A stretch of 64,000 nt of DNA from Acidobacteriota bacterium (GTDB lineage: Bacteria > Acidobacteriota > Thermoanaerobaculia > UBA5066). This document shows, in pieces, positions 11,286-61,624 of the stretch (its first letter is position 1; each line of letters opens with the position of its first letter). A program made the translations under genes and the position numbers. The DNA lies in the NCBI GenBank assembly GCA_016716715.1, contig JADJVE010000019.1, positions 27,083 through 91,082 on the forward strand, given 5' to 3'. Under the pieces are notes generated by a model, which worked only from the letters and a program-made list of their open reading frames with translations, did not search any database and had not been told where the DNA came from.

Positions 11286-11316
11286 GAAATCTTCTCTTTC
11301 TTCTTCTTCCTCGAAG
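11271..11316 (+). repeat. AT-rich mini-repeat copy carrying an in-frame TAA that splits copA
   Basis: CTCTTCACCTTCTAAGAAATCTTCTCTTTCTTCTTCTTCCTCGAAG. Its length is 3n+1, consistent with the +1 frame change between the two copA parts. Confidence 0.55.
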
Positions 11317-16837: not shown

Positions 16838-16856
16838 CGGCGGGAAGCGGGTCTTT

Positions 16857-17837: not shown

Positions 17838-17848
<11 letters not shown>
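17192..17848 (-). CDS. ctaE: cytochrome c oxidase subunit III
   Basis: HHFDSYEQQ...[18 protein letters not shown]...HALHMVIG...[18 protein letters not shown] start at 17848. Confidence 0.9.
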
Positions 17849-19482
<1,634 letters not shown>

Positions 19483-19486
<4 letters not shown>

Positions 19487-21685: not shown

Positions 21686-22892
21686 GGGCGTGGACCTCCA
21701 TCGCGGCCGGCAGGGCCGGGTCGTTGACGGGGAGGAGCGGGCGCTTTGCAAGCTCGCGCGCGAAAGCCGCGAGCCAGAGACCGAAGAGGGCGGCGGGCAG
21801 CGCGGCGTCCAGCCAGTGGATCGAAAGGCCCTGAGGGTGCCAGGCGGGCGCGACGAGCCAGAACAGGTCGACGCCGCGCATGAAGAGGAGGAGACCGGCG
21901 ATCACGGAGAGCCGGCCGAGGTGCTTCTTGAAGTTCGCCGAGAGGAGGAACACGAACGGCACGACGAACTGGAAGAGCGCGAGCGCGAGCGAGACGGCCA
22001 TCCAGCCGCCCGTCACGCGGGCCTTGTAGAACGTGATCTCCTCGGGGAGGTCGCCCGACCAGATGATGATGAGCTGGGAGACGGAGAAGTACGCCCAGAG
22101 CATCGTGAACGCGAAGAGCAGCTTGCCCCAGTCGTGCACGTGCCGCTGCTGGACGGCGGCGCGGAACGGCTCGCGCCTGGCGAGGAAGAGCGCGACGAGG
22201 AGCGTGAAGGCCATCCCCGAGATCGCCTGTCCGCCGACGACGTAGATCCCGTAGATCGCCGAGAACCAGTGCGGGTCGGTCGACATGAGGAGGTCGATCG
22301 ACGCGACCGAGATCAGGAGGCAGTAGATCGCGAGCGCGGGCGCCGCGACGAGCTGCATCCGGCGCTCGAGGCCGGCGGCGGGAGCGTCGTCCTGCTTCTT
22401 CGAGAGGCGGGAGAGGGCGAACGCGAAGGCCGTCCAGACGGCGAAGCAGAGCGCGAGCCTGAGGATCACCCCCGTGGGGTTCATGTACGCGGCGCGGTGG
22501 TGGAGGATCTCGTCCGTCGCGACGCGCGCCGGGTCGGCCCACGGGTAGACGTGGCGCAGGCCGAAGAGGAGCGGCACCGCGAAGAGGGCGACGAGCGGCA
22601 GCGTGCGCGACGAGGCCTCGAGGATGCGGCGGATGACGAGACCCCAGGCGCCGCCCGTCATGTGGTGGAGAGCCTCGATGGCGAGAGAGCCGAGCGTCAC
22701 GCCGAGGACGAAGCAGAAGGCGACGAGGTACGAACGGTAGAACTGTACCGGGTTCGCGACGAAGCCGGCGGCGGAGGCGACGGCGAAGACGGCACCGACG
22801 ACGAGGGCGATCCGGCCGACGCGCGCGAGATCGGCGGCGGGCGGCGCCCAGTCGGCCGCGCGAAGAGCCTTTTGCGGGTGAGCTTCAGTCAT
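21678..22892 (-). CDS. actF: alternative complex III subunit ActF (NrfD-like membrane subunit)
   Basis: 404-aa polytopic protein that follows actE in the canonical actABCDEF order. Confidence 0.7.
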   Translation of the reverse strand: MTEAHPQKALRAADWAPPAADLARVGRIALVVGAVFAVASAAGFVANPVQFYRSYLVAFCFVLGVTLGSLAIEALHHMTGGAWGLVIRRILEASSRTLPLVALFAVPLLFGLRHVYPWADPARVATDEILHHRAAYMNPTGVILRLALCFAVWTAFAFALSRLSKKQDDAPAAGLERRMQLVAAPALAIYCLLISVASIDLLMSTDPHWFSAIYGIYVVGGQAISGMAFTLLVALFLARREPFRAAVQQRHVHDWGKLLFAFTMLWAYFSVSQLIIIWSGDLPEEITFYKARVTGGWMAVSLALALFQFVVPFVFLLSANFKKHLGRLSVIAGLLLFMRGVDLFWLVAPAWHPQGLSIHWLDAALPAALFGLWLAAFARELAKRPLLPVNDPALPAAMEVHAHG

Positions 22893-23557
22893 CGGGTTTC
22901 GCTGCTTTCGGAGGAAGATTTCTTTGAAGGTGAATGGGGCGAAGGGGCCGTCGGAGCTTCGCCTGCCGCCTGATGCGCGGCCGCCTCCCCGCTCTTACCT
23001 TCTAAGAAATCTCCATCTTCTTTCGTCAGGAATTCCTTCGGCATGTTCTGTGAAGCCTGCAGTGTTTTCACCCAGGCCACCACCGCCCAGCGGTCTTCCG
23101 GCGTGATCTGGGACGCGTAGCTCGACATCTGGCCGAAGCCGTTCGTCATGACGTCGTAGAAGTAGCCCGCGCGCTCGTTGCGGAGGCGGTCGACGTGGAA
23201 CGTGCTCGGGTTCTTGAAGCCGCGCGCGACGATCATGCCCTGCCCGTCGCCCGTCCGGCCGTGGCACGGCGAGCAGAAGATGTTGAAGCGCTCCTGCCCG
23301 CGGAGGAGGAGCGTCTTCGTGACGGGGACGGGGAGGTCGAGGACGAACTTGCCGTCCTCGCCGACGCCGCGGTAGAGCGCCGCGTCGGCGCGCAAGAACC
23401 CGCGTGCGACGACGCCTTCCGGGAGCGGCCGGGCCGAGCTGTGGTCCGCGAAGAACGGAGACTCGCGCAGCGGCTTCGTCTTTGCCTGGTTGTGCATGTC
23501 GTCGCGGCAGCCGCCGAGCGCGAGAGCGAGAAGAGGGAGAAGGAGCGCGCGGCGCAT
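22889..23557 (-). CDS. actE: alternative complex III subunit ActE (monoheme cytochrome c lipoprotein)
   Basis: Start MRRALLLPLLALALGGC (lipobox) and a single CSPCHG heme motif. The C-terminal tail carries two in-frame AT-rich repeat copies (FLTKEDGDFLEGKSGE...SPSKKSSSESSETR). Confidence 0.75.
   Translation of the reverse strand: MRRALLLPLLALALGGCRDDMHNQAKTKPLRESPFFADHSSARPLPEGVVARGFLRADAALYRGVGEDGKFVLDLPVPVTKTLLLRGQERFNIFCSPCHGRTGDGQGMIVARGFKNPSTFHVDRLRNERAGYFYDVMTNGFGQMSSYASQITPEDRWAVVAWVKTLQASQNMPKEFLTKEDGDFLEGKSGEAAAHQAAGEAPTAPSPHSPSKKSSSESSETR
22983..23030 (+). repeat. AT-rich mini-repeat copy in the actE tail
   Basis: CTCTTACCTTCTAAGAAATCTCCATCTTCTTTCGTCAGGAATTCCTTC. A second copy in reverse orientation lies at 22906-22938. 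Confidence 0.5.
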
Positions 23558-24167
23558 CAGTCCTCCACGTCCTGCACGTGGACGCCGCCGAGCGTCTCCA
23601 TGAACCGGAACGTGTCGCCCGCGCGGAACTTCGGGTCGCGCGCGAGGATCATGAGGAAGTACTTGTCGCGCGACGCGAGCTGGAAGCGGTCCACGCCGAA
23701 GACCGGGTGGTAGGGCATCGGGAGGCCGTTCAGGACGAGCATCCCGAGGACCGCCGAGATCCCCGCGACGAGGATCGTGCACTCGAACGTGATCGGGATG
23801 AACGCGATCCAGCTGTTCGGCGGCCGGCCGCCGATGTTGAGCGGGTACGCGATTCCCGCCGCCCAGTACTGAAGGAAGAAGCCGCCGAGGCCGCCGACGA
23901 TGCCGCCGATCAGGACGAGGAGCGGCACGCGGGACGGGCCGTGGCCGATCGCGTCGTTCAGCTCCTCGATCGGGTAAGGCGTGTAGGCCTCCATCACGAC
24001 GTAGCCCTCCGCGCGCGCGCGGTGCACGGCCTGGACGAGGGCGGGCGAGCCCGCGAACTCGGCGATGACGCCGTAGAGGTGGGGCGGCAGCTCCCCGCCT
24101 CCCTCGCGCGGTCCGGGCTTGCCGACGCCGGGGGCGACGTGGCGCGGGAAGAAGCGGCGGAAGAGGC

Positions 24168-24172
<5 letters not shown>
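23557..24172 (-). CDS. actD: alternative complex III subunit ActD (DUF3341-like membrane protein)
   Basis: GTG start overlaps the actC stop (GTGA). AEFAGSPALVQAVHRAR...YPIEELNDAIG... matches the ActD family. Confidence 0.7.
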
Positions 24173-28482
<4,310 letters not shown>

Positions 28483-48008: not shown

Positions 48009-51000
48009 ATGAAAAACGCCCGACGAATCGCCCTCTTCGCCGCCGCCGCGCTCTTCGCCGCCGGGTCCGCCCGGATGGCGCTCACCTTCGCCGGGGCCCG
48101 CGTCACGGGCCCGGCCACGTGGAAGGACGTGGACCGGCTCGTCTCCGAGCAGAAATTCGAGGAGGCGGCCGCCGCGGCCGGGAAGATTCGCGAGGCGGCG
48201 CGCGCCGCGGGCGACGAGACGGACGAGGCGAAGGCCCTCGTCCGCGAGGTCCAGCTCCGGACCGCGCTTCACGGCTACGAGACTTCGGTCCGGTTCCTGA
48301 AGGACCAGCCGTGGCCGAAGGGCCTCCTGCAGAGGACGACGCTGCGCCTCTTCTACGCGCAGTCCCTCGTGACGTACGCCCAGGCCTACGGGTGGGAGAT
48401 CGGCAAGCGCGAGAAGGTTTCCTCGACTGGCGCCGTCGACCTCAAGGCGTGGACGCGGGACGAGATCCAGGCCGAGGCCGTGCGGGCGTACGTCGAGGTC
48501 TGGAAGGACCGCGAGGCGCTCGGGCGCGTGCCGGTGAACGCCGTCGCCGACTTCGTCGAGCCGAACAACTACCCGAAGGAGATCCGCGGCACGCTGCGCG
48601 ACGCCGCGTCGTACCTCTTCGCGGCCCTCCTCGCCGACACGTCCGGCTGGCGGCCCGAGCAGTCGAACGGCGTCTTCTCGCTCGACGCGAGGCTCCTGAT
48701 CGCCGGTGACGCCGGGGTGTCGAGGCTCGTGAAGCTCGACGACCCTGCCGTCCACCCGCTCCTGAAGCTCGGCGCCGTCCTCGACGACCTCGAGGCCTGG
48801 CACGCGCGCGCGGGCGAGAAGGAGGCCGCGCTCGAGGCGCGCCTCGAGCGCCTGCGCCAGCTGGACGCGGCGCTGACGGACGCGGGAGATCGCGCCGCCA
48901 TCCGGAAGGACCTCGCCTCGAAGCTCCCGGCGTACGCGGCCGTCCCCTGGTTCTCGATGGGAAAGGCCCAGCTCGCCGACTTCACGCGCGCCGAGGAAAA
49001 GCCCGGCAACCTCGTCAGGGCGCGGGCGCTCGCGCTCGAGGCGATCGCCGCCTGGCCGAAGTCGCTCGGGGCCGACCGCGCCCGCTCGATCGTCGGGCAG
49101 ATCGAGGCGCCCGACTGGTCGATGGCCGCGATGGCGGCGGACGGTCCGGGGAGGCGCTCGATCGAAGTCACGCACCGGAACCTCCCGGTCCTCTTCTTCC
49201 GCGCCTACGCGGTCGACCTCGAGGCCCGGATCGGCCGGGCGAAGGACTACAACCTCATGCCGCAGGGTCCGGAGGTCGACGCGCTCGTCGCGAGGGAAAA
49301 GCCGGTCGCGTCCTTCGAGTCGGCGCTTCCCGCCACGACCGACTTCAAATCGCATCGCACGTTCGTGACGCCGCCGGCCCTCGGGCGCGGCCTGCACGTC
49401 GTCGTCGCATCGGCCGATCCCGGGTTCGCGCCCGACAAGGGTCCGCTCCGCGCGGTCGGGATGATCGAGACGGACCTCGTCCTCACGGTTCGCCAGACGG
49501 ACACGAACGCCGTCGAGGCGCGGGTGTTGACGGGAACGACCGGCCGCCCCGCGGCCGGGGCGACGGTGTCGCTGTACCTCTACGACTGGCAGAAGGGGCA
49601 TCGCCGCATCGCCGAGGCCACGGCCGGGAGGGAGGGGCTCGCCGTCTTCGAGCCGACTCCCGAGCGCAGCGGCAAGCCGCTCTTCCTCTTCGCGAGGCGC
49701 GGCGAGGACGTCGCGCTGGATGCCGCGTCCTTCTCGATGTGGGCGCGCGGGCAGTCCGGCGAGACGTCCTCCGCGCTCGTTTACACCGACCGGAGCATCT
49801 ACCGGCCGCTCCAGAAAGTGCTCTGGAAGGCGATCCTCTACCGCGGCCGTCCCGACCAGGCGCGTTTCCAGGTGGCGCCGGCGTCGACCGTCTCGATCAC
49901 TCTCGTCGACGCGAACGGGCAGGCCGTCGAGTCGAAGGCCGTCACGACGAACGCCTACGGCTCCGCGGCCGGGGAGTTCGCGCTCCCGGCCGGGCGCGCG
50001 CTCGGCGCGTGGAGCGTGCGCTGCGACTGGGGCGGCGCCGCTTCGATCCGCGTCGAGGAGTACAAGCGGCCGACGTTCGAGGCGACGCTCGAGGAAGCGA
50101 AGGACGCTCTGCGCCTGAACAGGCCCGCGACGTTCCGGGGGGAGGCGCGCTACTACTTCGGCCTTCCCGTCGCGAGCGGAAACGTCGCCTGGCGCGTCAC
50201 GCGCGAGACAGAGTACCCGTGGTGGTGGTGGTGGGGATGGATGGGGCGCGGGCGCTCCGCCGGCGCGGAGACCGTCGCGACGGGCAACGCCGCGCTTGGC
50301 GCGGACGGAAGGTTCGCGGTCACGTTCACCCCGAAGGCGGACGAACGGCAGTCGAAGGAAATCACGTACCGCTACCGCGTCTCGGCGGACGTCACGGACG
50401 AGGGCGGCGAAACGCGCTCGGCCGACCGCTCCTTCCGCCTCGGGTTCGTGAGCGTGAAAGCGAGAGTGGAGAGAGAGAAGAATTTCTTCTTAGAAAGTAA
50501 GAAGGGAGAAGGCGCAGCGAAGATCGTCAGGACCGATCTCGATGGAGCGCCGCGTCCGGGCAAGGGGACCTGGCGGCTGCTGCGGCTCGTGTCGCCCGAG
50601 AAGCCGGTCCTCCCGGCCGAATTACCTTCAAAGAAATCCGAAAACGCCGTTGCACTTGGCGAGAAGGCCGCAGCAGGCGGCGTGTCGACCCCCGGCGACC
50701 TGCTTCGCCCCCGCTGGGCGACGTCGTACTCCGTCGACGAATGGCTGCACTCCTGGAAGGACGGGGCCGAACAGTCCTCCGGCGACCTGACGCACGACGC
50801 GAAGGGCGAGGCGAAGGTCGACCTGCCCGCCTTGTCCGAAGGCGCCTACCGCCTGCGCTACTCGACCGTCGACGACTTCGGTGCGAAGTACGAGACGGCG
50901 CAGGACTTCCTCGTCGCCGGCGGAAAGTCCGCCCCGGCGCTGCCCGTCGTCCTCCTCGCCGAGTCGTCCTCGGTGAGGGTCGGCGGCGTCGCTCGCTTCC

Positions 51001-54000
51001 TCGTTGCATCCGGCCTTCGCGATCAGACGCTCTTCCTCGATGTCGCGCGCGCTGGAAGGCTGATCGAGCGCCGCATCCTCAAGGCCGGGAGCGACGCCGT
51101 GCTCATCGAAAGGGCGATCACGGAGGAGGACCGCGGCGGGCTCGGTGTGACGCTGACCGCCGTGCGCGATCACCAGTTTCTCCAGCAGACGCAGAGCGTT
51201 TTCGTGCCGTGGGAAGACCGGGAGCTGAAGGTCTCCTTCGCCACCTTCCGCGACCGCCTGCGCCCCGGCCAGACCGAGACGTGGCGCGTAACGGTGAAGG
51301 GCGCGACGCCCGCGCACCCGCTCAAGGAGACGGCCGAGCTCCTCGCCTACATGTACGACCGGAGCCTCGACTCCTTCGTCCCGCACCGGCCCGTGAGCCC
51401 GCTCGCGCTCCTGCCGAATCGCGCGACGCCGCTCGTGGTCCGCGCGACGCTCGGTCCGGCGCCCCAGCTCTGGCTCACGAGCAGCGGCTTCCCGTCGCCT
51501 CCGTCCGGCCCGTACCTCGTCGGAGACCGGCTCAAGTTCGAGAGCGGCTACGGAATCGGCGGCCCTGGCGTGAGGAGCCGCGGGATGGGCGGCGCCTACA
51601 ACCAGGTGAGACCCGCCTCGGCGCCGATGGCGATGAAGTCGGCCATGGCGAGGGAGGAGGGGGCGGCCAACGCGGTCGCCGAAGGCAAGCTCGCCGATTC
51701 GAAGAACGGGCGAGACGAGGAGGTCGATTCACTTTCGAAGAAGAAGGACGGCGATAAGGCGCGCGCGGACGCTGCAGGCGAAGGCACGGGTCTTCGCAGC
51801 AACTTCTCCGAAACCGCTTTCTGGCAGCCGCAGCTCCTGACGGGGCCGGACGGCTCGGCGTCCATCGAATTCACCGTGCCGGACTCCGTCACGTCGTGGA
51901 AGGTCTTCGTCCACGCGGTCACGAAGGACCTGCGCGGCGGGTCCGTGGACGCCGAGACGAAGACCGTCAAGGACCTCATGGTCCGGCCGTACGTCCCGCG
52001 CTTCCTGCGCGAAGGCGACAAGGCGGAGATCAAGGTCGTCGTGAACAACGCGTCGGGGAAACCGCTGAGCGGCACGCTGGCGTTCGAGATCACGGATCCG
52101 GCGACGGGGAAGAGCCTCCTCGCGGCATTCGGGCTCGAAGGTGGCGCGTCGAAGGCATTCACGGCGCCCGCGGGCGGCGGGACGAACCTGACGTTCCCCG
52201 TGACGGCGCCGAAGGGACTGACGACCGTCGCCTTCAAGGCGGTCGCGACGGCGGGCGACCTGTCGGACGGCGAGGTCCGCCCGGTGCCGGTGCTGCCCGG
52301 CCGGATGCACCTCGTCCAGTCGCGCTTCGTCACGCTCAAGAACAAGGACAAGAAGACGCTGCGCTTCGACGACCTCGCGAAAAACGACGATCCGAGCCTC
52401 GTCAACGAGCAGATGGTCGTCACCGTGGACGCGCAGCTCTTCTACACGGTCCTCCAGGCGCTGCCGTACCTCGTGAACTACCCGTACGAGTGCACGGAGC
52501 AGACGCTGAACCGCTTCCTCTCGACGGGCATCGTCTCGAGCGTTTACAAGGACTACCCGGCCGTCGCGAAGATGGCCGCGGAGATGTCGAAGCGGACGAC
52601 GCCTCTCGAGTCCTGGGACGCGGCCGATCCAAATCGAAAAATGGCTCTTGAAGAGACGCCGTGGCTCGTGACGGCAAAGGGCGGCCGCACCGACCTCGAC
52701 ACGATCAACGTCCTCGACCCGCGCGTCGCGCAGGCGAACCGGGAGTCGTCACTCGCGCGGCTGAGGAAGGCGCAGACCTCGATCGGAGCGTTCCCGTGGT
52801 TCCCGGGCGGCCCGCCGTCGCCTTACATGACCCTCTACATCCTCCACGGCTTCGCGAAGGCGCTCGAGTTCGGGGTGGACGTTCCGAAGGACGTGACACA
52901 GCGCGCGTGGGGCTACGTCGCGCAGCACTACCGGAGCGAATGGCGTGCCTGCATGGCGGACAACCGCTGCTGGGAGTACATCACTCTCCTGAACTACGTC
53001 CTGTCGACGTACCCGGACGTCTCGTGGAGCGGCGGCGCCTTCACGGACGCCGAGCGCAAGGAGATGCTCGACTTCTCGTTCAAGCACTGGAGGCACCACG
53101 CCCCGTACCTCAAGGGCTATCTCTCGCTGACGCTCAAGCGCATGGGCCGACCGGCGGATGCGAAGCTCGTGTGGGACTCGGTCATGGACTCGGCGAAGTC
53201 GAACGAGGAGCAGGGGACGTTCTGGGCGCCCGAGGACCGGTCGTGGCTCTGGTACAACGACACGATCGAGACCCACGCGTTTGCACTGCGGACGGTCCTC
53301 GAGCTGGACCCTACGAGCGCGAAGAAGGACGGCCTCGTCCAGTGGCTGCTCATCAACAAGAAGCTCAACCAGTGGAAGTCCACGCGCGCGACGGCCGAGG
53401 TCATCTACTCGCTCGTCCACTACCTGAAGAAGGAAGGCGCGCTCGGCGTCCCCGAGGACGCGACCGTGACCGTCGGCGTCCAGAAGGTGACGTTCGCGTT
53501 CGACCCCGAGAAGTACACGGGGAAAAACAATCGGATCGTGATCCCCGGCGAGAAGGTCGACCCCAAGACCACGTCCACCGTCGTCGTCGAGAAGGAAGGC
53601 AAGGGCTTCGTCTTCGCCTCGGCCGCCTGGCACTTCTCGACGGAGAAGCTTCCCGCCGAGGACCGCGGAGACTTTTTTCAGGTCTCGCGGAAGTTCTTCC
53701 GGCGGGAGAACACGGGGAAGGAGTTCACGCTGACTCCGCTCGCCGAGGGCGCCGTCATCCGGCCCGGCGACCAGATCGAGGTGCAGATCTCGCTGCGGAC
53801 GAAGCACGACGCCGAGTACGTTCACCTGCGCGACCCGCGGGCGGCCGGCCTCGAGCCCGAGAACGTCCTTTCGAAGTGGAAGTGGGACCTCGGGATCGCG
53901 TGGTACGAGGAGACTCGCGACTCGGCGACGAACTTCTTCTTCGAGCGCCTGCCCGTCGGCGAGTACACGTTCAAGTACCGCCTGCGCGCGAACATGGCCG

Positions 54001-54107
54001 GAACGTTCCGGGTCGGGCCCGCGACGGTCCAGTCCATGTACGCGCCCGAATTCAACGCCTACTCGGCGGGCACGGTCCTCAAGGTGGCGGGAGGATCGCC
54101 TCCATGA
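48009..54107 (+). CDS. alpha-2-macroglobulin family protein (bacterial A2M, thioester-containing)
   Basis: 2032 aa. Signal peptide. MG domains. Thioester motif YPYECTEQ at about 52490. Carries several AT-rich repeat copies (50469-50511, 50624-50648, 51722-51748). Confidence 0.9.
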   Translation: MKNARRIALFAAAALFAAGSARMALTFAGARVTGPATWKDVDRLVSEQKFEEAAAAAGKIREAARAAGDETDEAKALVREVQLRTALHGYETSVRFLKDQPWPKGLLQRTTLRLFYAQSLVTYAQAYGWEIGKREKVSSTGAVDLKAWTRDEIQAEAVRAYVEVWKDREALGRVPVNAVADFVEPNNYPKEIRGTLRDAASYLFAALLADTSGWRPEQSNGVFSLDARLLIAGDAGVSRLVKLDDPAVHPLLKLGAVLDDLEAWHARAGEKEAALEARLERLRQLDAALTDAGDRAAIRKDLASKLPAYAAVPWFSMGKAQLADFTRAEEKPGNLVRARALALEAIAAWPKSLGADRARSIVGQIEAPDWSMAAMAADGPGRRSIEVTHRNLPVLFFRAYAVDLEARIGRAKDYNLMPQGPEVDALVAREKPVASFESALPATTDFKSHRTFVTPPALGRGLHVVVASADPGFAPDKGPLRAVGMIETDLVLTVRQTDTNAVEARVLTGTTGRPAAGATVSLYLYDWQKGHRRIAEATAGREGLAVFEPTPERSGKPLFLFARRGEDVALDAASFSMWARGQSGETSSALVYTDRSIYRPLQKVLWKAILYRGRPDQARFQVAPASTVSITLVDANGQAVESKAVTTNAYGSAAGEFALPAGRALGAWSVRCDWGGAASIRVEEYKRPTFEATLEEAKDALRLNRPATFRGEARYYFGLPVASGNVAWRVTRETEYPWWWWWGWMGRGRSAGAETVATGNAALGADGRFAVTFTPKADERQSKEITYRYRVSADVTDEGGETRSADRSFRLGFVSVKARVEREKNFFLESKKGEGAAKIVRTDLDGAPRPGKGTWRLLRLVSPEKPVLPAELPSKKSENAVALGEKAAAGGVSTPGDLLRPRWATSYSVDEWLHSWKDGAEQSSGDLTHDAKGEAKVDLPALSEGAYRLRYSTVDDFGAKYETAQDFLVAGGKSAPALPVVLLAESSSVRVGGVARFLVASGLRDQTLFLDVARAGRLIERRILKAGSDAVLIERAITEEDRGGLGVTLTAVRDHQFLQQTQSVFVPWEDRELKVSFATFRDRLRPGQTETWRVTVKGATPAHPLKETAELLAYMYDRSLDSFVPHRPVSPLALLPNRATPLVVRATLGPAPQLWLTSSGFPSPPSGPYLVGDRLKFESGYGIGGPGVRSRGMGGAYNQVRPASAPMAMKSAMAREEGAANAVAEGKLADSKNGRDEEVDSLSKKKDGDKARADAAGEGTGLRSNFSETAFWQPQLLTGPDGSASIEFTVPDSVTSWKVFVHAVTKDLRGGSVDAETKTVKDLMVRPYVPRFLREGDKAEIKVVVNNASGKPLSGTLAFEITDPATGKSLLAAFGLEGGASKAFTAPAGGGTNLTFPVTAPKGLTTVAFKAVATAGDLSDGEVRPVPVLPGRMHLVQSRFVTLKNKDKKTLRFDDLAKNDDPSLVNEQMVVTVDAQLFYTVLQALPYLVNYPYECTEQTLNRFLSTGIVSSVYKDYPAVAKMAAEMSKRTTPLESWDAADPNRKMALEETPWLVTAKGGRTDLDTINVLDPRVAQANRESSLARLRKAQTSIGAFPWFPGGPPSPYMTLYILHGFAKALEFGVDVPKDVTQRAWGYVAQHYRSEWRACMADNRCWEYITLLNYVLSTYPDVSWSGGAFTDAERKEMLDFSFKHWRHHAPYLKGYLSLTLKRMGRPADAKLVWDSVMDSAKSNEEQGTFWAPEDRSWLWYNDTIETHAFALRTVLELDPTSAKKDGLVQWLLINKKLNQWKSTRATAEVIYSLVHYLKKEGALGVPEDATVTVGVQKVTFAFDPEKYTGKNNRIVIPGEKVDPKTTSTVVVEKEGKGFVFASAAWHFSTEKLPAEDRGDFFQVSRKFFRRENTGKEFTLTPLAEGAVIRPGDQIEVQISLRTKHDAEYVHLRDPRAAGLEPENVLSKWKWDLGIAWYEETRDSATNFFFERLPVGEYTFKYRLRANMAGTFRVGPATVQSMYAPEFNAYSAGTVLKVAGGSPP
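50469..50511 (-). repeat. AT-rich mini-repeat copy (reverse orientation) inside the A2M gene
   Basis: GAGAGAGAAGAATTTCTTCTTAGAAAGTAAGAAGGGAGAAGG. Confidence 0.45.
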
Positions 54108-54564: not shown

Positions 54565-54751
54565 CTCTTTTCCTCTCGAAGCTCTGCACGGCCAGCGCAA
54601 GACCGTCCCGGTCGATCGCCTCGAGGGCGTCGATCTCGGCTGCAGCAAGGCCCGCGGCGGCGGCGCGGCCGCGCGGATCCGCGAGGAAGAGCGCACGCTC
54701 GGCCTCGTTCGTGTAGAGGCGGGCAAGGTAGCCCTCGAAGCCGGGGCTCAC
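54530..54751 (-). CDS. small protein (73 aa) translationally coupled to DUF692, a possible minimal MNIO partner (RRE/DUF2063-N-like) or precursor
   Basis: GTG start overlaps the DUF692 stop (GTGA). MSPGFEGYLARLYTNEAERALFLADPRGRAAAAGLAAAEIDALEAID is a helical, leader-like sequence. Overlaps the GNAT start by 35 nt. Confidence 0.4.
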   Translation of the reverse strand: MSPGFEGYLARLYTNEAERALFLADPRGRAAAAGLAAAEIDALEAIDRDGLALAVQSFERKRDEHRAHSHQNR

Positions 54752-55617
54752 GCGGCGGCCTCCGCTCGGCGAGCCCGGCCCTTTGCGAGTGAGGTTCTCG
54801 CTCGGGCGAGCTCGTCGAGGATTTCTTTGAAAGGGGGAAAGGCTCCGTCGCGCTCGAGGATCACCGTGAGTGGCTGCGGCGCCAGCTCGCCGACCCTCTC
54901 GAGGAGATCGAAGACCGCGTCGGGGGTCGCGTGGAGGTGATCGTCGAGGATCCTGCTCACACCCGCCCTGCCCGGCACCCCGATGCGCCGCCCGCCAGCG
55001 AGATGAACGGCCCTCACCCGGTTGCTCGGGACCACTCGAAGAAATCTCTCTTCCTCTTCCTCTCCTCCGAACCCAAAGTTCTTCGCGTTCGCGTGGAGGT
55101 TGTGCAGGTCGAGGAGGAGATCCGTGTCGCAGGCCTCGAGGACCTCCGCGACGAACGTTGCTTCGTCGCGGTCGCTGCCGGGCGGGTCGATCAGCGTCGC
55201 GACGTTCTCGAGGAGCGGCGCGCTGCCGACGACGGCGCGGGCGCGCGCGACGTTGCGCCCCGTCCCCTCGATCGTGGCCGCGCAGCGCGGCGGGGCCGCG
55301 AGGTGGCCGATCTCGATTCCGCCGCCGCGCACGAACGCGAGGTGCTCCGACCAGAACACGGGCTGTGCGAGGTCGAAAACGCGCGCGAACGCGTCGAGGC
55401 GCCTCGGGTCGACGGGCGCCGAGGAGGCGAGGCCGAGCGACACGCCGTGAAGGACGACCGGCACGTACGCGCCGAGCGTCCGGAGGGCGCGGACCTCGCG
55501 CGCCGGGCTCTTCATCCAGTCTTCGGCGATCACCTCGACGACGTCCAGCCGGTCCGCCGCCGCGAGGATGCGGTCGGCGATCGCGGGCCGCCAGCCGAGC
55601 CCGACGCGGTCCTTCAC
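54748..55617 (-). CDS. DUF692 family multinuclear non-heme iron oxidase (MNIO, MbnB/TglH-like)
   Basis: TIM-barrel xylose-isomerase-like motifs: GLGWRPAI, WSEHLAF, LLENVATL, LLLDLHNLHANAKNFGF, and VHLAGG. Confidence 0.8.
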   Translation of the reverse strand: MKDRVGLGWRPAIADRILAAADRLDVVEVIAEDWMKSPAREVRALRTLGAYVPVVLHGVSLGLASSAPVDPRRLDAFARVFDLAQPVFWSEHLAFVRGGGIEIGHLAAPPRCAATIEGTGRNVARARAVVGSAPLLENVATLIDPPGSDRDEATFVAEVLEACDTDLLLDLHNLHANAKNFGFGGEEEEERFLRVVPSNRVRAVHLAGGRRIGVPGRAGVSRILDDHLHATPDAVFDLLERVGELAPQPLTVILERDGAFPPFKEILDELARARTSLAKGRARRAEAAA

Positions 55618-55618
55618 G

Positions 55619-56485
55619 TCAGCCCCCGCACCCGCCGCAGCCGCCGCCGCACCCGCCGCCTCCGCACGACGAGCCGCACGAGGATCCGCAGGACGAGCCT
55701 GAGATGCCGCCGTCCGAAGACGAGGCCTTCGGGTACAGCTTCTTCAGGTACCCGAAGTCGCCCGCCGGGAGGAGACCGACGCCGAACACCGCGGCGAGGA
55801 GTGCGACCTCGGCGCTCGCGGCGTGCGCACGAAGGGACGGCGCGCGGTGCCGGAGGCCGGAGAAGAGCGTCCTCAGGTCCGCGACGAGGCGGTCGCCCCT
55901 CGCCGTTCGGCGGGGGAAGGCGGCGACGACGAGCGCGAAGGCCGCGAGGAGCGACAGGATGATCAGAAAACCGACGTTTCGCCGCCCGCGCGAGATCGCC
56001 TGCGCCCAGCGCACGCCGGAGACTCCCCAGAGAACGACGAGCCCGACGACGAACGCGCGGATCCGGGCCGCGTTCTCTCCGGGGCCCGGCAGGAGGCGGA
56101 GGTCCTCGAGGGAGGTCCGGATCGGCTCGGTGGCCGCGCCGAGCGCGCGGTCCGTGAACACCGAGGCCGCCTCGCCGAAGGAGCGGAACTTCTCGAGCAG
56201 AGCCGTCTCGAGCGGATTCTTCGCCCGCGCGTCCTTTTTCGTCTGCAACGTCGTGCCGTCGGGGACGAGGAGGCCGCGGTCGACGAGCGTGACGCTCGCG
56301 ACGCGGAGGGCTTCGTTCGGGCCGCCCCGAAGGTACGCGATCAGGTACGGGTCCGTGAGCGAGACGTGTGCGGGCCCCTCATCCTCGGAGCTCTTCCTCA
56401 GGTGCGCGACGACGAAGACAGTCGCTGCCGCGAGTGCGGCGTAGAACAGCAGGAACTGCGGGCCGGCGAGGTCGAACGGGTTCAT
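55619..56485 (-). CDS. TIGR04222-like membrane protein with a Cys/Gly-rich C-terminal tail (candidate MNIO substrate)
   Basis: Start MNPFDLAGPQFLLFYAALAAATVFV. 3-4 TM segments. C-terminus ...[41 protein letters not shown]. Confidence 0.6.
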   Translation of the reverse strand: MNPFDLAGPQFLLFYAALAAATVFVVAHLRKSSEDEGPAHVSLTDPYLIAYLRGGPNEALRVASVTLVDRGLLVPDGTTLQTKKDARAKNPLETALLEKFRSFGEAASVFTDRALGAATEPIRTSLEDLRLLPGPGENAARIRAFVVGLVVLWGVSGVRWAQAISRGRRNVGFLIILSLLAAFALVVAAFPRRTARGDRLVADLRTLFSGLRHRAPSLRAHAASAEVALLAAVFGVGLLPAGDFGYLKKLYPKASSSDGGISGSSCGSSCGSSCGGGGCGGGCGGCGG

Positions 56486-57204
56486 GGCATCCGCCGGGCG
56501 CGCTCGCGCAGAAGAGCGGCGAGCGCCGGGAGCCGGGAGAGGATGCGCGCCGCCTCGCCCGGGGCGAGGGGGCGCCGCTCGCGCACGGCGGAGAGGCTCT
56601 CGACGAGCGCGGGCCATCCGTCGCCGGGCAGGGCGGAGGCAACCTGGCGCAATGCCTCTTTCGGCGAGGGAACGGGTTGGCCTTCGAGCGACAGGAGAGA
56701 CGCGGCGGCGGCGCGGAGCGGGCCCGTGAAGTTCGCGACCGAGCGCCCGGCCTCGTCGTCGCTCCCGCCGTGCAGAGCCCAGGCTTCGCGGAGGCGCAGC
56801 ACGAGGTTCAGGAGCGACTGCGAAAGGCGCCGGCGCAACGCATCCTCCGGGATTCTCAGAGCCGCAAAGGGGTCGCTGCCGAAGAGGACGCGGCGGCGCC
56901 GCGCGATGTCCGCGAACTTGACCGCGAAGGCTTCGGCGGCCTCGGCGATCTCACTCTCCAGGAGAAACATGACCTCGAGCCGGGCCGCCGCCTGCGCGAG
57001 ACGCAAGGCGCCGCGCATGTCCTCGACGCCTTTCTCCGGAAGCGCCTTCAGGACGAGCACCAGGTTGACGTCCGATTCGGGCCGGAGCGCTCCCTCCGCC
57101 GCGCTGCCGAAGAGGACGGCCGAGGACAGATCGCCGCCGAGGCTCGTGCGGGCGGCAGCGAGAAACGCGTCGAGGGCGCGGGCGGTCGGCTCGGGCAGTT
57201 CCAT
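56482..57204 (-). CDS. nucleotidyltransferase (polymerase-beta-like / ANT-like) domain protein
   Basis: Start MELPEPTARALDAFL. AVLFGSAAEGALRPESDVNLVLVL is the GS...D.D NTase motif. Its stop overlaps the downstream start (ATGA). Confidence 0.65.
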   Translation of the reverse strand: MELPEPTARALDAFLAAARTSLGGDLSSAVLFGSAAEGALRPESDVNLVLVLKALPEKGVEDMRGALRLAQAAARLEVMFLLESEIAEAAEAFAVKFADIARRRRVLFGSDPFAALRIPEDALRRRLSQSLLNLVLRLREAWALHGGSDDEAGRSVANFTGPLRAAAASLLSLEGQPVPSPKEALRQVASALPGDGWPALVESLSAVRERRPLAPGEAARILSRLPALAALLRERARRMP

Positions 57205-57227: not shown

Positions 57228-59240
57228 TTAAGACGATGTGGAGGTGCGCGAGCGCGCCTTGGCGAGCAGCCGCTCCCGGAAGAGGCCCGGCGGGATCTGG
57301 CCCTCGGACAGGAACTCCTCGTGGAAGCGCTTCTCCGAGAAGCCCGGTCCCTCGATCCGGCGGCACTCCTCGCGCAGCGCGAGGATTTCGGCTTTCCCGA
57401 GGTAGTACGTGATGGCCTGCGTCGGCCACTTGGAGTACCGGAAGGCGGCCTTCTTCATCCCGTCCACGGCGGCGCGCTCGGAGGCGCTCGGGTTCGCCTT
57501 CGGGTCGGTCGAGACGGGGCCCTGCACGAAGCGCACGTTTCGCGCGAGGTACGTCACGGCTTCGTCGAACGTCATGAAGCCGCAGTGAAGACCCGTGTCC
57601 ACCACGACGCGCGCGTCGCGCAGGAGCTGGTTCTGGAGCTGGATGAGGCGCTCCTCGGGCGTGTAGAAGCCTTCCGGGAAGCCGTCGCGCGGCTCGCCGA
57701 TCAGCTGCTCGGTGTAGAGGGCCCAGCCCTCGGAGGACAGCGCGTCCTCCCACATCGACGCGGAATCCTCGACACCGCCGGGCAGCAGCCAGCGGATCAC
57801 GGGAATCGACGCCGAGCGCGCGCGCGTGAACTGGTAGTACCAGTCGTGGCCGGGGAAACCCTCGTGGGCGGCCGTGGACGCGATCGCGGGCCGGTTGTGG
57901 TCGCGCAGCGCGGCGAGGTCGTTCCCCGTCGGCGTGACGTAGAACTGCCCGACGCCGCCCTTCTTGAACTGGGGCGCCGGGTAGTACGCGGCGTCGATCG
58001 AGTCGCGCAGGGGCGGCGGCGTGAAGAGGACGTCCAGCCGGTAGTCGGCCGGCAGGTCGAACATGCCCGTCTTCCGCCCGTACGCCACGAGGCGCTGGCA
58101 CGTGTCCCGGTAGGACGCGAGCATCTCCGCGTCGGTCTTCGGGATCTCGTCCTCCAGCTTCGAAACGACGGCGGGCAGGGACGGGTCGGACCAGCCGCGC
58201 GAGATCGCGATGCGGCGCGCGAGAGCCGTCATCTCGGCGAGGGTCGCGGCGACGGCGGTCTTGCCGCGCGCGTGCAGCTCGCGCGGCGTCGCGGAGATTC
58301 CCAGGTTGTTCTTCAGCGCCCAGGTGTATTCGATCTCGCCGGCCGCGTAGCGATCGCGGTCGAAGGCGGGCTTCAGCGTCTTGCCGTCGGGCTGGATGTA
58401 GAGGTCGACGAGGCCCTTTCGGAAGTCGCGAAAGGCGGCGCCGGCGGCTGCGGACGCCGAGAGGAGAGCCGCGCGGCCCGCGTCGTCGAGGGCGGAGCCG
58501 GCTTCTTTCGCGCGCTCCGGGAGCGTCTTCTCGAAGTAGGCAGCCGTCGACGCGGCCGCCTCGACCGACACGGCGATGAGGCGCCGGTCGGGGATCGCGT
58601 CGCCGGAGGCGCCGCGCCGGACGTTCGCGAGAGCCACTTTCAGGTACGCGGGCACGGCGGCGGTGCGAGAGGCGATCGCGGCCCACTCCGCTTTCGTTCC
58701 GCGCGCGGAGCCCGCGCCCGGCTCCATTCCCTGGAGCGTCCACTCGATCCCGCGCAGCGGCTCCTCGAGGAAGACGTCGAGCGCCTTCTCGTGGATCCGG
58801 CGTTCGAGGTTGTGGATCAGGAAGGCGAGCTGGGACTTCATCACGGCCGCGTCGATGCGGTCGGATTCCGGGAGCTTCTTCCGGTCGATCTTCGCGAGGC
58901 GCGCTTCGAAACCGCGAAACTCGTCGCGCTCGGCGAGGAGCGCGGCGGGGGAGTAGTCGCGCAGCTTTCCGTCCAGCGCGGCGTAGGCCGGGTCGAGTCC
59001 GGAGGCGCCGAGGTACGTCGCGACGACGGGAAAGCGGCTCAGGAATGCACGGACGTAATCCTCTTCGAGCGCCGCGAAGACCGAGGCTTTTTGCTTCGGA
59101 GATTTCGGAGAAGAAGAGGAGGGGGATTTCTGCGAATGCGCGGGCAGGGCCAGCGCGGCGAGTAACGCCAGGGCCGCGACGGTTGCCGGGTGCGCGACGC
59201 GGGTGAATGCGGGGATCCGCCCTCTTACCCTTCTAAGCAA
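57228..59240 (-). CDS. DUF885 family protein (secreted, peptidase-like)
   Basis: TTG start supplied by a repeat copy (MLRRVRGRIPAFTRVAHPATVAALALLAALALPAHS signal peptide), with GGGAGG upstream. HEGFPGHDWYYQ and other DUF885 motifs. Confidence 0.65.
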   Translation of the reverse strand: MLRRVRGRIPAFTRVAHPATVAALALLAALALPAHSQKSPSSSSPKSPKQKASVFAALEEDYVRAFLSRFPVVATYLGASGLDPAYAALDGKLRDYSPAALLAERDEFRGFEARLAKIDRKKLPESDRIDAAVMKSQLAFLIHNLERRIHEKALDVFLEEPLRGIEWTLQGMEPGAGSARGTKAEWAAIASRTAAVPAYLKVALANVRRGASGDAIPDRRLIAVSVEAAASTAAYFEKTLPERAKEAGSALDDAGRAALLSASAAAGAAFRDFRKGLVDLYIQPDGKTLKPAFDRDRYAAGEIEYTWALKNNLGISATPRELHARGKTAVAATLAEMTALARRIAISRGWSDPSLPAVVSKLEDEIPKTDAEMLASYRDTCQRLVAYGRKTGMFDLPADYRLDVLFTPPPLRDSIDAAYYPAPQFKKGGVGQFYVTPTGNDLAALRDHNRPAIASTAAHEGFPGHDWYYQFTRARSASIPVIRWLLPGGVEDSASMWEDALSSEGWALYTEQLIGEPRDGFPEGFYTPEERLIQLQNQLLRDARVVVDTGLHCGFMTFDEAVTYLARNVRFVQGPVSTDPKANPSASERAAVDGMKKAAFRYSKWPTQAITYYLGKAEILALREECRRIEGPGFSEKRFHEEFLSEGQIPPGLFRERLLAKARSRTSTSS

Positions 59241-59250
59241 TTTCCAGAAC
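59219..59250 (+). repeat. AT-rich mini-repeat copy forming the 5' end (TTG start) of the DUF885 gene
   Basis: GCCCTCTTACCCTTCTAAGCAATTTCCAGAAC. Confidence 0.45.
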
Positions 59251-59269
59251 CTCCCGTCCTGTCTCTGCG

Positions 59270-60307
59270 CTAGTTGGAACGGGGATTCTCTCTCAACCGC
59301 CCGAGGAAGAATGCCAGCCCAACGGCCCCCGCCGCGAGCGTCGTGAGCAGGTGCAGGAGGCCGCCGAGGACGGCGCCTGTCGCGAGCGGCAGCCCGTCCA
59401 GCGCCGCGGCCGCCGCGAAGCCGGATTCGTACGGGCCGAACGTGCCCGCGGGCGACGGGATCACCGCGGCCGTCGTGATGGACGCGAGGAGCGCGACGGC
59501 AAGCGTCGCGGGGTGGAGGGGCAGGCCGAGGCCCTTCGCGGTCACGAAGAGCGCGGCGAGATGGAGCGCGAGGAATGCGATCGCGGCGAGCGCCGCCCCG
59601 AGGTAACGGTTGGGGGCGCGCCGCGCCACGGCGAGGCCCTCGAGGATCTCCTCGGCGATCGCGCGCCGCTTTCCGCCCTCCGGCAGGCGCGGGGCGAGCC
59701 ACGCGACGAGGCGGCCGGAGACGGCGGGCAGAACGAGAAGAAGTCCGGCCCCGCCGACACACACCGCAGCGGCCGCGGCGCCGAGGACGGGCGTGCCACG
59801 CGCGACGAGCAGCCACGCCGCGCCCGCGACACCCGTGAGGAGGAGCGTCGCCGTGTCGAGGAGCTTCACGAGGGCGAAGACCGCCGCCGATCGCGCCCAC
59901 GTGGTCCCGAGGACGGAGCGCAGCGCGGCCCATGTCCCGACCTCGCCGGTCCGGAAGGGCATCACCTGCAGGAGAAAAGTCGTCGCCCCCGACACGGACC
60001 ACGCGCGGCCGAACGGCACCTCAGCGCCGCGCGGCAGCAGCAGGTTCAGCCGCAGCGCGCGGGGGGCGAAGGCGAGGACGTTGAGCAGGAACCCGAGCGC
60101 GACGAGCCACGGGTTCGCGGAAGAGAGTCGGGAGAAAAGGTCTGCTGAAGAGCGCGTGAACGCCACGGCGGCCAGCACGAGCAGCGCCGTCAAGAGAAGG
60201 AGAGAAAAGAGTTTCTTAGAAAGGGTAAGAGGGGCGGAGCCGGGGCGCGGCCCCTCCGCGCCCGGTTGCGGCGGCGCGTGTCCCGCGGCGGGCATCCGTA
60301 CATTCAC
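59270..60307 (-). CDS. flippase-like (UPF0104 / lysyl-PG-synthase TM region) membrane protein
   Basis: 345 aa, about 8 TM segments. Alternative start at ATG 60295 (MPAAG...), 9 nt downstream of an AAGGTG contributed by a repeat copy. Confidence 0.6.
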   Translation of the reverse strand: MNVRMPAAGHAPPQPGAEGPRPGSAPLTLSKKLFSLLLLTALLVLAAVAFTRSSADLFSRLSSANPWLVALGFLLNVLAFAPRALRLNLLLPRGAEVPFGRAWSVSGATTFLLQVMPFRTGEVGTWAALRSVLGTTWARSAAVFALVKLLDTATLLLTGVAGAAWLLVARGTPVLGAAAAAVCVGGAGLLLVLPAVSGRLVAWLAPRLPEGGKRRAIAEEILEGLAVARRAPNRYLGAALAAIAFLALHLAALFVTAKGLGLPLHPATLAVALLASITTAAVIPSPAGTFGPYESGFAAAAALDGLPLATGAVLGGLLHLLTTLAAGAVGLAFFLGRLRENPRSN

Positions 60308-60340
60308 CTTCTAAGAAATCCGAATCCGAAATCCGAAATA
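60298..60340 (+). repeat. AT-rich mini-repeat copy followed by a 3x tandem heptamer (CCGAAAT / GGATTTC), in the 5' leader of the flippase-like gene
   Basis: CGTACATTCACCTTCTAAGAAATCCGAATCCGAAATCCGAAATA. A further reverse-orientation copy lies at 60183-60228. Confidence 0.5.
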
Positions 60341-60341
60341 T

Positions 60342-61298
60342 TCATCCCCTGTCCCCCTCGCCTGTATTCCGCTTTCTCTTCTCCACGACGAGCTCCTCGA
60401 GGAGCGCGCGGTTGATGGAGATGAGGTCGGCGAGGAGGCCCGACAGGAAGCACACGACCGCGGCGACGAAGAGCACGGCCGCGAGGAGGAGCGACTGGAT
60501 GTGGCCCGCGGGGTTCTGGGCCGTTGCGACGAACCACGCGTACCGTCCGACGAGCGCGAGCCCGGCGAGGCCGAGCAGGGCCGCAAATCCGAAGAAGACC
60601 GGCAGTGGCTTGTAGAGCGCCGTGATCCGGAGGATGTTCGCGCCCTGCACGAGGACGTAGTTCGACGTCCGCCGGATCAGGCGCGACGGCCGCACGGGGG
60701 CGTTCGTCCGGACGGGGACGGACGCGACGGCCATCTCCTTGTTGCCCGCCTGGATGAGCGTCTCGATCGTGTACGTCATCCGCGAAAAGACGTTCAGATG
60801 CATCGCGGCCTCGCGCGTGAGCGCGCGGAACCCGGACGTCGCGTCGGGCACGTCGGTGCCGGAGACCCGCCGGACCACCCATGAGCCGAGCCGCTGAGTC
60901 AGACGCTTGCCGGGCGAGAAGTCCGGCTTCGTCGCGACGCCGCGGTCGCCGACCACGATCTCGGCCTCGCCTCTCAGGATCGGGGCGACGAGGGCCGCGA
61001 CGTCCGCCGCGGCGTACTGGCGGTCGGCGTCCGTCGAGACGATTACGTCCGCTCCGGCGCGGAGAGAGGCGTCCAGGCCGGCCCGCCACGCGAAGGCGAG
61101 GCCGCGGTGGATCGGGAGGCGCACCACGTGGTCGGCTCCCGCCCTCCGCGCGGCCTCCGCGGTGCCGTCGGTCGACCCGTCGTCCACGACGAGCGTCTCG
61201 ACGGCGTCGAATCCCTCGAGCCGCTTTGGCAGCTCCGCGAGGGCGGCGGCGATCTGCTCCGCCTCGTCCCAGGCCGGGATCTGGATGACGAGCTTCAT
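60342..61298 (-). CDS. family 2 glycosyltransferase (polyprenol-phosphate glycosyltransferase-like)
   Basis: MKLVIQIPAWDEAEQI..., VVDDGSTDGT, STDADRQY, and a C-terminal TM helix. Confidence 0.85.
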   Translation of the reverse strand: MKLVIQIPAWDEAEQIAAALAELPKRLEGFDAVETLVVDDGSTDGTAEAARRAGADHVVRLPIHRGLAFAWRAGLDASLRAGADVIVSTDADRQYAAADVAALVAPILRGEAEIVVGDRGVATKPDFSPGKRLTQRLGSWVVRRVSGTDVPDATSGFRALTREAAMHLNVFSRMTYTIETLIQAGNKEMAVASVPVRTNAPVRPSRLIRRTSNYVLVQGANILRITALYKPLPVFFGFAALLGLAGLALVGRYAWFVATAQNPAGHIQSLLLAAVLFVAAVVCFLSGLLADLISINRALLEELVVEKRKRNTGEGDRG

Positions 61299-61333
61299 GG
61301 CGTGGACTCAGAAGGTTAGCAGGGGGCCGTGAT

Positions 61334-61624
61334 ATGACATCACGTGTATCAGGAGGTCTCGATATGAGCTTTCCAGACGAAGAAGAGAAAGAGCCCGATT
61401 TCTCGGACGTCGTGAGCGGCAGCTCCTCGACGGCCGGCGCGCCCGCCGGCGAGACCGTGACCCGGACGTACACCGTGGTCGCGGGCGACAGCCTCTCGAA
61501 GATCGCGAAGAAGATCTACGGCGACGCGAACCGCTGGAAGGAGATCTGGGAAGCGAACAAGGACAAGGTCAAGAACCCGGATCTCATCCACCCCGGCCAG
61601 GAACTGAAGATCCCTGGCGCCTGA
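61334..61624 (+). CDS. LysM peptidoglycan-binding domain protein
   Basis: YTVVAGDSLSKIAKKIYGDANRWKEIWEANKDKVKNPDLIHPGQELKIP is a canonical LysM. Confidence 0.75.
   Translation: MTSRVSGGLDMSFPDEEEKEPDFSDVVSGSSSTAGAPAGETVTRTYTVVAGDSLSKIAKKIYGDANRWKEIWEANKDKVKNPDLIHPGQELKIPGA

Follow-up and report, generated by a model that had tools for sequence, protein, structure and literature searches.

What is a short dispersed repeat doing at the start codons of two neighbouring genes? The question is raised by a 64,000-nt stretch of contig JADJVE010000019.1 (positions 27,083 to 91,082 of the forward strand) from the Acidobacteriota assembly GCA_016716715.1, called the window here at its full length. On its minus strand a family 2 glycosyltransferase (GT2) gene is followed by a flippase-like gene and then by a gene of the DUF885 family, and each of the two junctions between them carries a copy of the repeat, termed a box. 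A preliminary description of this DNA proposed that such copies provide the Shine–Dalgarno (SD) and start signals of the downstream genes and that, if mobile, they could carry such signals with them. The analysis reported here supports the first part: the boxes, as read from the sequence, appear to supply SD and start signals at both junctions. The reading preferred, with a probability of about one half, is that the boxes are old, paired putative recognition sites that were coopted at the two junctions as translation-initiation regions. The genes and boxes concerned are listed in coordinates of the window.

60342–61298, minus strand: family 2 glycosyltransferase (GT2) gene (Pfam PF00535; exact protein on a public contig)
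60315–60339, minus strand: imperfect heptamer array on the outer flank of box A (Tandem Repeats Finder)
60293–60321, minus strand: box A and start region of the flippase-like gene, GGAT-TTCTTAGAA (core 60317–60309; profile match 60341–60291, E=7e-6)
60188–60236, plus strand: box B, the inverted partner of box A (core 60213–60221; profile match)
59270–60295, minus strand: flippase-like (LPG_synthase_TM) gene (Pfam PF03706, E=6e-25; gene calls in L001–L005)
59213–59259, minus strand: box C and start region of the DUF885 gene (core TGCTTAGAA, 59239–59231; profile match 59259–59213)
59108–59146, plus strand: degenerate inverted partner of box C, a purine tract plus GATTTCTGCGAATG (core 59128–59136)
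57228–59240, minus strand: DUF885-family gene, 670 aa, with signal peptide (Pfam PF05960, E=5.5e-89, domain from residue 72; more than 1000 homologues)

The boxes are about 25–40 nt long, and about 19 of them occur in the window, 17 of which can be aligned by eye. Their consensus, a loose purine tract followed by GATTTCTTAGAAGGTGAAGAGGG, is asymmetric, running from the purine tract through a conserved block into a G-rich inner flank. Information content peaks in GATTTCTTAGAAGGT-A, the well-conserved block being GATTTCTTAGAAGGT(G/A)A; the centre of this block, TTCTnAGAA, is a dyad of 9–11 nt and the sole dyad within the box, and the flanks are purine-rich on one strand. The core is degenerate, with TTCTTAGAA, TTCTTTGAA and TTCTTCGAA among its variants. 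That the copies are a genuine repeat, as first described, is borne out by their numbers. At up to three mismatches the 14-mer CTTACCCTTCTAAG matches the window 5 times against 0.94 expected, a count reached by none of 100 shuffles, and the most over-represented 9-mer of the window, TTCTTAGAA, occurs 6 times against 0.07 expected. A profile built from the aligned copies gives 18 window matches at E<0.01, and over 608 kb of high-G+C loci together with the window it gives 200 matches of at least 8 bits versus 2 in reversed-sequence decoys. Box density is about one per 3–5 kb.

At the junction of the GT2 and flippase-like genes, the GT2 stop codon (TGA, 60344–60342) lies 2 nt from the heptamer array. 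The AAGGTG of box A (60310–60305) is followed by exactly 9 nt and then by the ATG at 60295–60293, the arrangement originally reported. The 34-nt gap of the same report agrees with the distance from the GT2 stop to an in-frame GTG (60307–60305) within box A, the distance to the ATG being 46 nt. Relative to box A the two in-frame starts lie at +10 (GTG) and +22 (ATG), and an independent public gene call on the window sequence begins the flippase-like gene at the ATG. Four other genomes keep box A together with its AAGGTG. In three related loci (L002, L004 and L005), all of which also have box B, it reads GGATTTCTT(A/G)GAAGGTGA; the ATG is retained in L004 and L005, and the gene of L002 is called from the box GTG.

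Box B and the partner of box C are two copies beyond those first noticed. The former lies within the N-terminus of the flippase-like gene, 96 nt core to core from box A (60313 to 60217). It encodes APLTLSKKLFSL, read antisense as A-P-L-T-L-S-K-K-L-F-S-L, and the Pfam LPG_synthase_TM match starts at residue 36, just past it.

The array next to box A had been given as three tandem copies of CCGAAAT (GGATTTC on the coding strand). An array is indeed present, in a slightly less ideal form: after the GT2 stop the minus strand reads ATTTC-GGATTTC-GGATTC-GGATTTC, ending at 60315, so that the units are GGATTTC, a 6-nt GGATTC and GGATTTC plus a partial unit, the last GGATTTC belonging to box A itself. 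Tandem Repeats Finder describes it with a period of 7, 3.7 copies, 89% matches and indels. The number of units varies among five genomes (the window, L001, L002, L004 and L005), and TTCGGAT is found as a single outer-flank unit on many other boxes, which together point to the array as a product of replication slippage on the GGATTTC flank.

The second junction follows the same pattern. The flippase-like gene stops at TAG 59272–59270 and is followed by GGGAGG (59255–59250), a 9-nt spacer and the start TTG at 59240–59238, which directly precedes CTTAGAAGGGTAAGAGGGCGG and is the only in-frame ATG, GTG or TTG from −120 to +250 nt of box C. The proposal that the sole plausible start of the DUF885 gene is a TTG within a repeat copy, with GGGAGG upstream, is therefore upheld. 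Box C encodes M-L-R-R-V-R-G-R, in agreement with the suggestion that the N-terminus MLRRVRG is coded by the repeat itself. DUF885 orthologues of 70–92% identity start at the same box codon, be it TTG, GTG or ATG, with N-termini that include MLRRVRGR, MLRRVNERF, LLRRVIGR and VLRRVNDTF; a few have an extra upstream ATG (MPLQDGRFWKLLRRV), which the window lacks. Orthologous DNA at box C reads GGGAGGTTCTGGAAATTGCTTAGAAGGGT in the window and L004 and GGGAGGGTCTGCAAAGTGCTTCGAAGGGT in L002. In L005 (GATTTCTTCGAATGGGAAAGG) an ATG arising within the box opens the frame (MGKATR...), and another set of orthologues likewise starts at an in-box ATG (TTCGAATGGG, MGK/MGS...), with MGSGGR... and MEMG... in the 70% class. 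Orthologues of 57–65% identity have unrelated signal peptides. The comparison of orthologous 5' regions thus found no conserved native start upstream that is unrelated to the repeat.

The partner of box C (weight-matrix matches centred on 59108 and 59132; weak profile match 59112–59137) has coding content as well. The 59132 match encodes AHSQKSPSSSS, in an antisense reading of A-H-S-Q-K-S-P-S-S-S-S-P-K that covers the signal-peptide end together with a Ser/Pro linker. The segment AHSQKS(P/S)SS is found in nearly all of the full-length orthologues listed at 69% identity or more and is absent at 57–65%. The signal peptide is accordingly made up of the pair, as arm (n-region), interior (hydrophobic core) and arm (c-region plus linker).

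Initiation from a box extends to a third gene. In the relatives L002 and L004 the AAGAGGGG of a box precedes the thrS start (GTG or ATG) by 6 nt, giving three spacings in all: GGGAGG–9 nt–TTG, AAGGTG–9 nt–ATG and AAGAGGGG–6 nt–GTG/ATG.

Across the collection the boxes are paired and face each other. Box pairs within 450 nt comprise 54 convergent, 2 divergent and 7 tandem arrangements, and of 210 strong boxes scored by weight matrix, 163 have a partner in convergent orientation, 7 in divergent and 18 in tandem orientation. Core-to-core spacing ranges from 53 to about 330 nt, mostly 75–160 with a mode of 76–81, and shows no 3-nt periodicity. Every locus has interior DNA of its own: an all-against-all BLAST of 54 interiors gave matches between orthologous loci only, and no interior conservation was seen in an alignment of six window pairs. 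The other pairs and boxes of the window are these:

22900–23030: best-scoring pair of the window (cores 22924 plus, 23004 minus), in the C-terminal tail of the cytochrome c ActE (gene 22889–23557, minus strand, alternative complex III operon)
11125–11310: pair in a CopA-type ATPase gene (cores 11151 plus, 11284 minus), in the YHS–HMBD linker
11730 and 12667, both minus strand: single boxes in the same CopA gene
50465–50660: pair (cores 50491 plus, 50631 minus) inside a 2032-aa alpha-2-macroglobulin-like (A2M) gene, kept in five other genomes
1720–1906: pair between divergent genes (cores 1746 plus, 1875 minus)
Core centres of further boxes: 14695 (plus)/14768 (minus), 29684 (plus)/29988 (minus), 30601 (minus), 37093 (plus), 45111 (minus), 51738 (minus) and 54827 (plus)

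Some of these lie in recognisable gene neighbourhoods. The alternative complex III genes (16857–25409, minus strand) encode an ActB-like Fe-S/molybdopterin protein, an NrfD-type ActC, ActD, the cytochrome c ActE and ActF, with SCO1 and cytochrome oxidase genes next in line, in synteny with L126–L129. The A2M gene (48009–54107, plus strand), with MG2, A2M and bMG10 domains in its orthologues, holds at least three boxes, and an insertion test on the segment around its pair gave no PDB match among solved structures. In L004 the ThrRS and A2M-like genes (894–2809 and 15140–21240) are each called in two pieces, the A2M break falling at the box pair; these split calls are probably indel errors of long-read assembly. 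Directly downstream of the DUF885 gene, a gene of the MbnB/TglH/ChrH (DUF692) family and three small or unannotated neighbours (54748–57204, minus strand) make up what is possibly a peptide-modification cluster, kept in L002 and L004, with a weak box pair at 54827/55048. A variant box, GTTATATTCT(A/C)AGAAATATAAT, roughly palindromic over some 20 nt, takes the place of the right-hand arm beside a normal box at L037 (about 6440) and L100 (about 3900), a short way upstream of a gene; it could be a true operator with the TTCTnAGAA core in common.

The boxes favour noncoding DNA and also enter genes. By crude gene calls about 60% are noncoding against a noncoding background of 10–20%, and 42 of 114 boxes are inside called genes; independent gene calls place box pairs within the A2M, MbnB-family and flippase-like genes. 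A box often starts 11–53 nt past a co-directional stop codon, and boxes are found in every type of intergenic region. Within genes the boxes occupy linkers, tails and N-termini and keep codons that are rare for the window genome (TTA, AGT, AAT, TCT and AAA). In the A2M alignment, wobble positions are invariant at 6 of 19 sites in the arms versus 7 of 37 in the interior, a modest excess only; what is observed is the persistent use of rare A/T-ending codons, and strong synonymous-site constraint is not claimed. Reverse-complement arms end some open reading frames (ORFs) with L-F-T-F-TAA. ComEA-like helix-hairpin-helix genes at L018 (about 495) and L043 (about 7670) end in or traverse a box, one ending in ...ILFTF-TAA in the box and the other running on into a poly-serine tail for which the pyrimidine tract codes, which indicates that boxes reshape C-termini.

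The repeat is concentrated in genomes of Thermoanaerobaculia or Acidobacteriota. The window has a G+C content of 70%, and DUF885 homologues of 57–92% identity come from metagenome-assembled genomes (MAGs) named Thermoanaerobaculia or Acidobacteriota by their sources. A scan with GATTTCTTWGAAGGTRA over one genome per species matched at least 120 stretches; G+C was above 0.6 in 63 of the 120 listed, mostly from Thermoanaerobaculia or Acidobacteriota MAGs, and the remaining matches listed were single and in low-G+C genomes, as chance predicts. Carriage by phages was rejected, with 120 viral-contig matches that were all single and almost all of low G+C; two viral contigs of high G+C carried one box each. 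Searches of the literature turned up nothing on the box motif or on repeats in the class Thermoanaerobaculia, and the family is lineage-specific and apparently undescribed.

Standard elements were also considered. Rfam 15 gave no gathering-score match in the window and none at E≤1 in 58900–60500. A sigma-70 promoter was rejected because the conserved block is too compact for −35 and −10 hexamers, has no T at position −7, and a scan of 58800–61500 found no sigma-70-like promoter. An intrinsic terminator was rejected because boxes occur in operons and genes, have convergent gene pairs as their rarest context and lack a T run; three terminator-like sites in 58800–61500, a number near chance, were none of them at boxes. 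The window is without tRNA genes, and a tRNA-related element was rejected on that ground. The sigma-54 and extracytoplasmic function (ECF) promoters and the known operator consensus sequences presumably offer no fit either.

How the boxes evolve bears on both the preferred reading and its rivals. Pairs are found at orthologous positions in the A2M-like genes (six genomes) and in the MbnB-family, flippase-like and DUF885 genes. In the tail of ActE the pair is present in the window and L126; in L127, which has a pair too, the left arm overlies native D-F-L-R-K-E-D codons, L128 has only the purine/pyrimidine flanks and L129 is without the tail. Comparison of the filled sites (window, L126) with the empty one (L129) showed ragged ends and no target-site duplication, and the outer flanks of boxes are variable purine tracts without a sharp boundary. 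At the CopA site 12667 a box-coded segment is present in the window, P0247 and P0252, and the orthologue ...0242 has LTAATEFKAS at equal length; box presence there varies among orthologues about 84–90% identical with no change in length. Elsewhere in CopA the YHS–HMBD linker is about 40 residues longer in the pair-bearing clade. Judged from these alignments, the boxes are shown to be old, vertically inherited and evolving in place by patch substitution and small indels.

The CopA gene of the window is itself split. The YHS ORF (11010–11286) ends at an in-box TAA, the HMBD and ATPase parts are in another frame, and W-I-C-P residues precede the first ATG (11329); close orthologues are fused proteins of 784–823 aa. 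The split is a frameshift within the repeat interior, either real or an assembly error.

With regard to function, we infer that the primary role of a box is that of a putative site for a sequence-specific factor that reads each box independently, on either strand. Two arms from one pair resemble each other no more than arms taken at random, with observed and shuffled similarities of 0.29 and 0.34 in the outer flank, 0.47 and 0.48 in the inner flank and 0.92 and 0.91 in the core, and no arm-to-arm covariation is seen; the upstream and downstream arms, relative to inferred transcription, do not differ. The simplest such factor would be a DNA-binding protein working on two facing sites; on this reading boxes are not transposon ends, nor do they act as base-paired RNA hairpins. 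At the GT2–flippase junction, sequence and comparison indicate that the A/U-rich core offers an unstructured landing stretch in an mRNA of 70% G+C, with AAGGTG, or the GTG within it, acting as SD or start for the ATG at 60295. At the flippase–DUF885 junction they indicate that GGGAGG and a TTG created within the box (TTT changed to TTG) start the protein, and the pair encodes the charged n-region (LRRVRGR) and the c-region plus linker (AHSQKSPSSSS) of the signal peptide. Use in initiation looks like a recurrent exaptation and not the main role: three genes (thrS, flippase-like and DUF885) start at a box among about ten distinct box sites in loci with independent gene calls, far above an estimated chance of 1–2%.

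Several observations weigh against this preferred reading. A gene start lies 45 nt or less downstream of only about one box in ten, which makes initiation a secondary use. Arm spacing shows no helical 10.5-nt phasing (p=0.37), which a looping protein might produce. Gene calls beyond seven loci came from a crude gene finder of our own (80% coding), and the context percentages are approximate. Cores pair in 84% of minimum-free-energy folds with a family mean z of −2.1, as expected for any inverted repeat, and a hairpin role is conceivable on that account. The DNA-site model also does not explain the purine/pyrimidine strand asymmetry of the flanks, which fits an RNA reading: with a convergent-only layout, a transcript of either strand always has its purine arm 5' and its pyrimidine arm 3'.

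That RNA reading is doubtful, as far as can be judged. It holds that the arms pair in the transcript, purine arm 5' and pyrimidine arm 3', in a stem that hides the SD and start; the stem would be opened by ribosomes completing the upstream gene (translational coupling) or would be an RNase III, stability or processing site. Besides the layout and the core pairing, the fold of 60345–60185 pairs UUUCUUAGAAGGUGA of box A with box B and encloses the AUG. By sequence, the pyrimidine arm (CACCUUCU) looks like an anti-SD and the purine arm like an SD. The distance from the upstream stop is about 30 nt to the DUF885 TTG, 34–46 nt to the flippase starts and 17–24 nt to each core. Since purine and pyrimidine tracts of low complexity can base-pair in more than one register, a stem is conceivable. 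Folding at the two junction loci nevertheless gives no stability beyond that of shuffles (z=−0.7 and −0.25), variable positions of the arms do not covary, and mere pairing needs no strongly conserved specific core. For the many pairs found in divergent spacers or in the middle of a gene, moreover, coupling would be meaningless, and the indistinguishable arms and the lack of an Rfam match also count against an RNA element.

A broader version of the recognition-site idea is speculative and, like the RNA element, unlikely. Here the boxes would be genome-wide oriented paired recognition sites, maintained or actively written in the genes and spacers alike of an uncultured acidobacterial class. Writing might be the work of a sequence-specific drive, such as biased uptake or biased recombination, or of a protein dependent on two sites that face each other, either one that organises the chromosome or a domesticated transposase. 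If true, bacteria would here have their own version of 'convergent-site' rules, with new starts, SDs, signal-peptide ends, linkers and stops as a side effect.

Mobility, which the preliminary description had raised, fares worse. The supply of start and SD signals that it described stands and is kept among orthologues; mobility itself is not borne out, as the copies are at fixed orthologous positions. In this alternative the boxes would be terminal inverted repeats of small non-autonomous elements, resembling transposable elements of the miniature inverted-repeat type (MITEs) or repetitive extragenic palindromic (REP) sequences, that brought start, SD and stop signals with them, and it is improbable. 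The excess of convergent over divergent pairs is what terminal inverted repeats would give, and the elements would be about 110–260 nt with arms, of high copy number and mainly intergenic near stops. ActE tails and CopA linkers are 35–40 aa longer where a pair is present, and reverse-complement arms give a C-terminal LFTF and TAA in several genes. Set against this, nothing is common to the interiors of non-orthologous copies, a result of the BLAST and the six-pair alignment on which a classical MITE with a conserved inside was rejected; the filled and empty ActE sites lack sharp ends and target duplication; boxes occur in coding sequence without length change; and sites are fixed across 70–90% protein identity. 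About 600 kb of DNA contained four convergent pairs spaced 0.45–4 kb apart, in which no transposase was noticed; L072, the one inspected, encloses an ordinary RNase R-like gene. No transposase of the REP-associated tyrosine (RAYT) type was seen in the fetched loci, though no genome-wide search was made. The absence of shared interiors, of target duplications and, in these 600 kb, of pairs of transposase size leaves mobility without support.

REP sequences, bacterial interspersed mosaic elements (BIMEs) and REP doublets forming hairpins (REPINs), in Enterobacteria and Pseudomonas, are like the boxes in being short, clade-specific, present in hundreds of copies, arranged as inverted doublets behind stops and capable of forming hairpins. 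A REP unit is itself a palindrome of 20–40 nt, whereas the box has a dyad of 9–11 nt only and is not a self-folding palindrome; REPINs keep a fixed spacing and spacer sequence and REPs lie outside genes, whereas boxes are 53–330 nt apart with unique interiors and more than one-third of them in called coding sequence. MITEs such as the Neisseria Correia elements and the in-frame Rickettsia palindromic elements share inverted arms, small size and high copy number with the boxes and can also provide expression signals, stops or in-frame peptide segments; in those families the interior is conserved, the ends are defined, the target is duplicated and insertions are polymorphic, and the boxes show none of this. 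A parallel in function to the proposed initiation signals may be drawn with mycobacterial interspersed repetitive units (MIRUs), intercistronic operon repeats that carry the initiation signals of the downstream gene. MIRUs, however, are direct tandem units of 46–101 nt with small ORFs that overlap the stop and start on either side, and the boxes are inverted pairs that do not overlap the upstream stop.

Molecular drive of the kind seen with uptake signals appears very unlikely. It would have the box preferentially taken up or recombined and so accumulate by substitution, as do the uptake signal sequences (USS) and DNA uptake sequences (DUS) of Pasteurellaceae and Neisseriaceae, which are likewise clade-specific motifs found in genes and spacers, in both orientations and sometimes as inverted pairs. 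The boxes agree in their clade-specific motif and frequency, in occurring within genes with no indel, at linkers and loops that tolerate change and in both orientations, and in being polymorphic by substitution between close relatives. USS and DUS have an exact short core at about 1 per kb and are mostly coding, with adjacent inverted pairs acting as terminators; box cores are degenerate and no exact 9–12-mer, boxes are mostly noncoding, in excess of the background, and strict convergent pairing at 50–300 nt is not predicted by drive.

Invertons, in which a master invertase would cross over at the boxes and flip the segments enclosed, also inside genes, match the anatomy of invertible promoters and intragenic invertons (common-consensus inverted repeats around unique segments of 50–300 nt) and are most improbable, given that interior orientation is identical in every orthologue compared with no flipped alleles seen, that simulated inversion yields stop codons in 3 of 5 intragenic pairs, that recombination alone leaves the convergent-only rule unexplained, and that the hundreds of boxes per genome are far above known inverton counts.

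The box family combines features common to no known repeat class. Strict inward pairing, unique interiors, the lack of covariation and coding overlay without indels do not suit REPs, MITEs, uptake sequences or invertons and point to an unknown sequence-specific factor, which would belong to a widespread uncultured lineage of soil and sediment. In these MAGs gene starts, ends and N-terminal extensions are systematically affected by boxes, with consequences for annotation: pyrimidine-rich arms have few stops and favour over-long ORFs, purine arms carry TTG and GTG starts, and an in-box TAA ends some ORFs. For the biology of the family, the boxes are a case of a dispersed repeat turned into parts of genes, as ribosome-binding site, start codon, signal-peptide ends, inter-domain linkers and C-terminal tails, that have been long kept.

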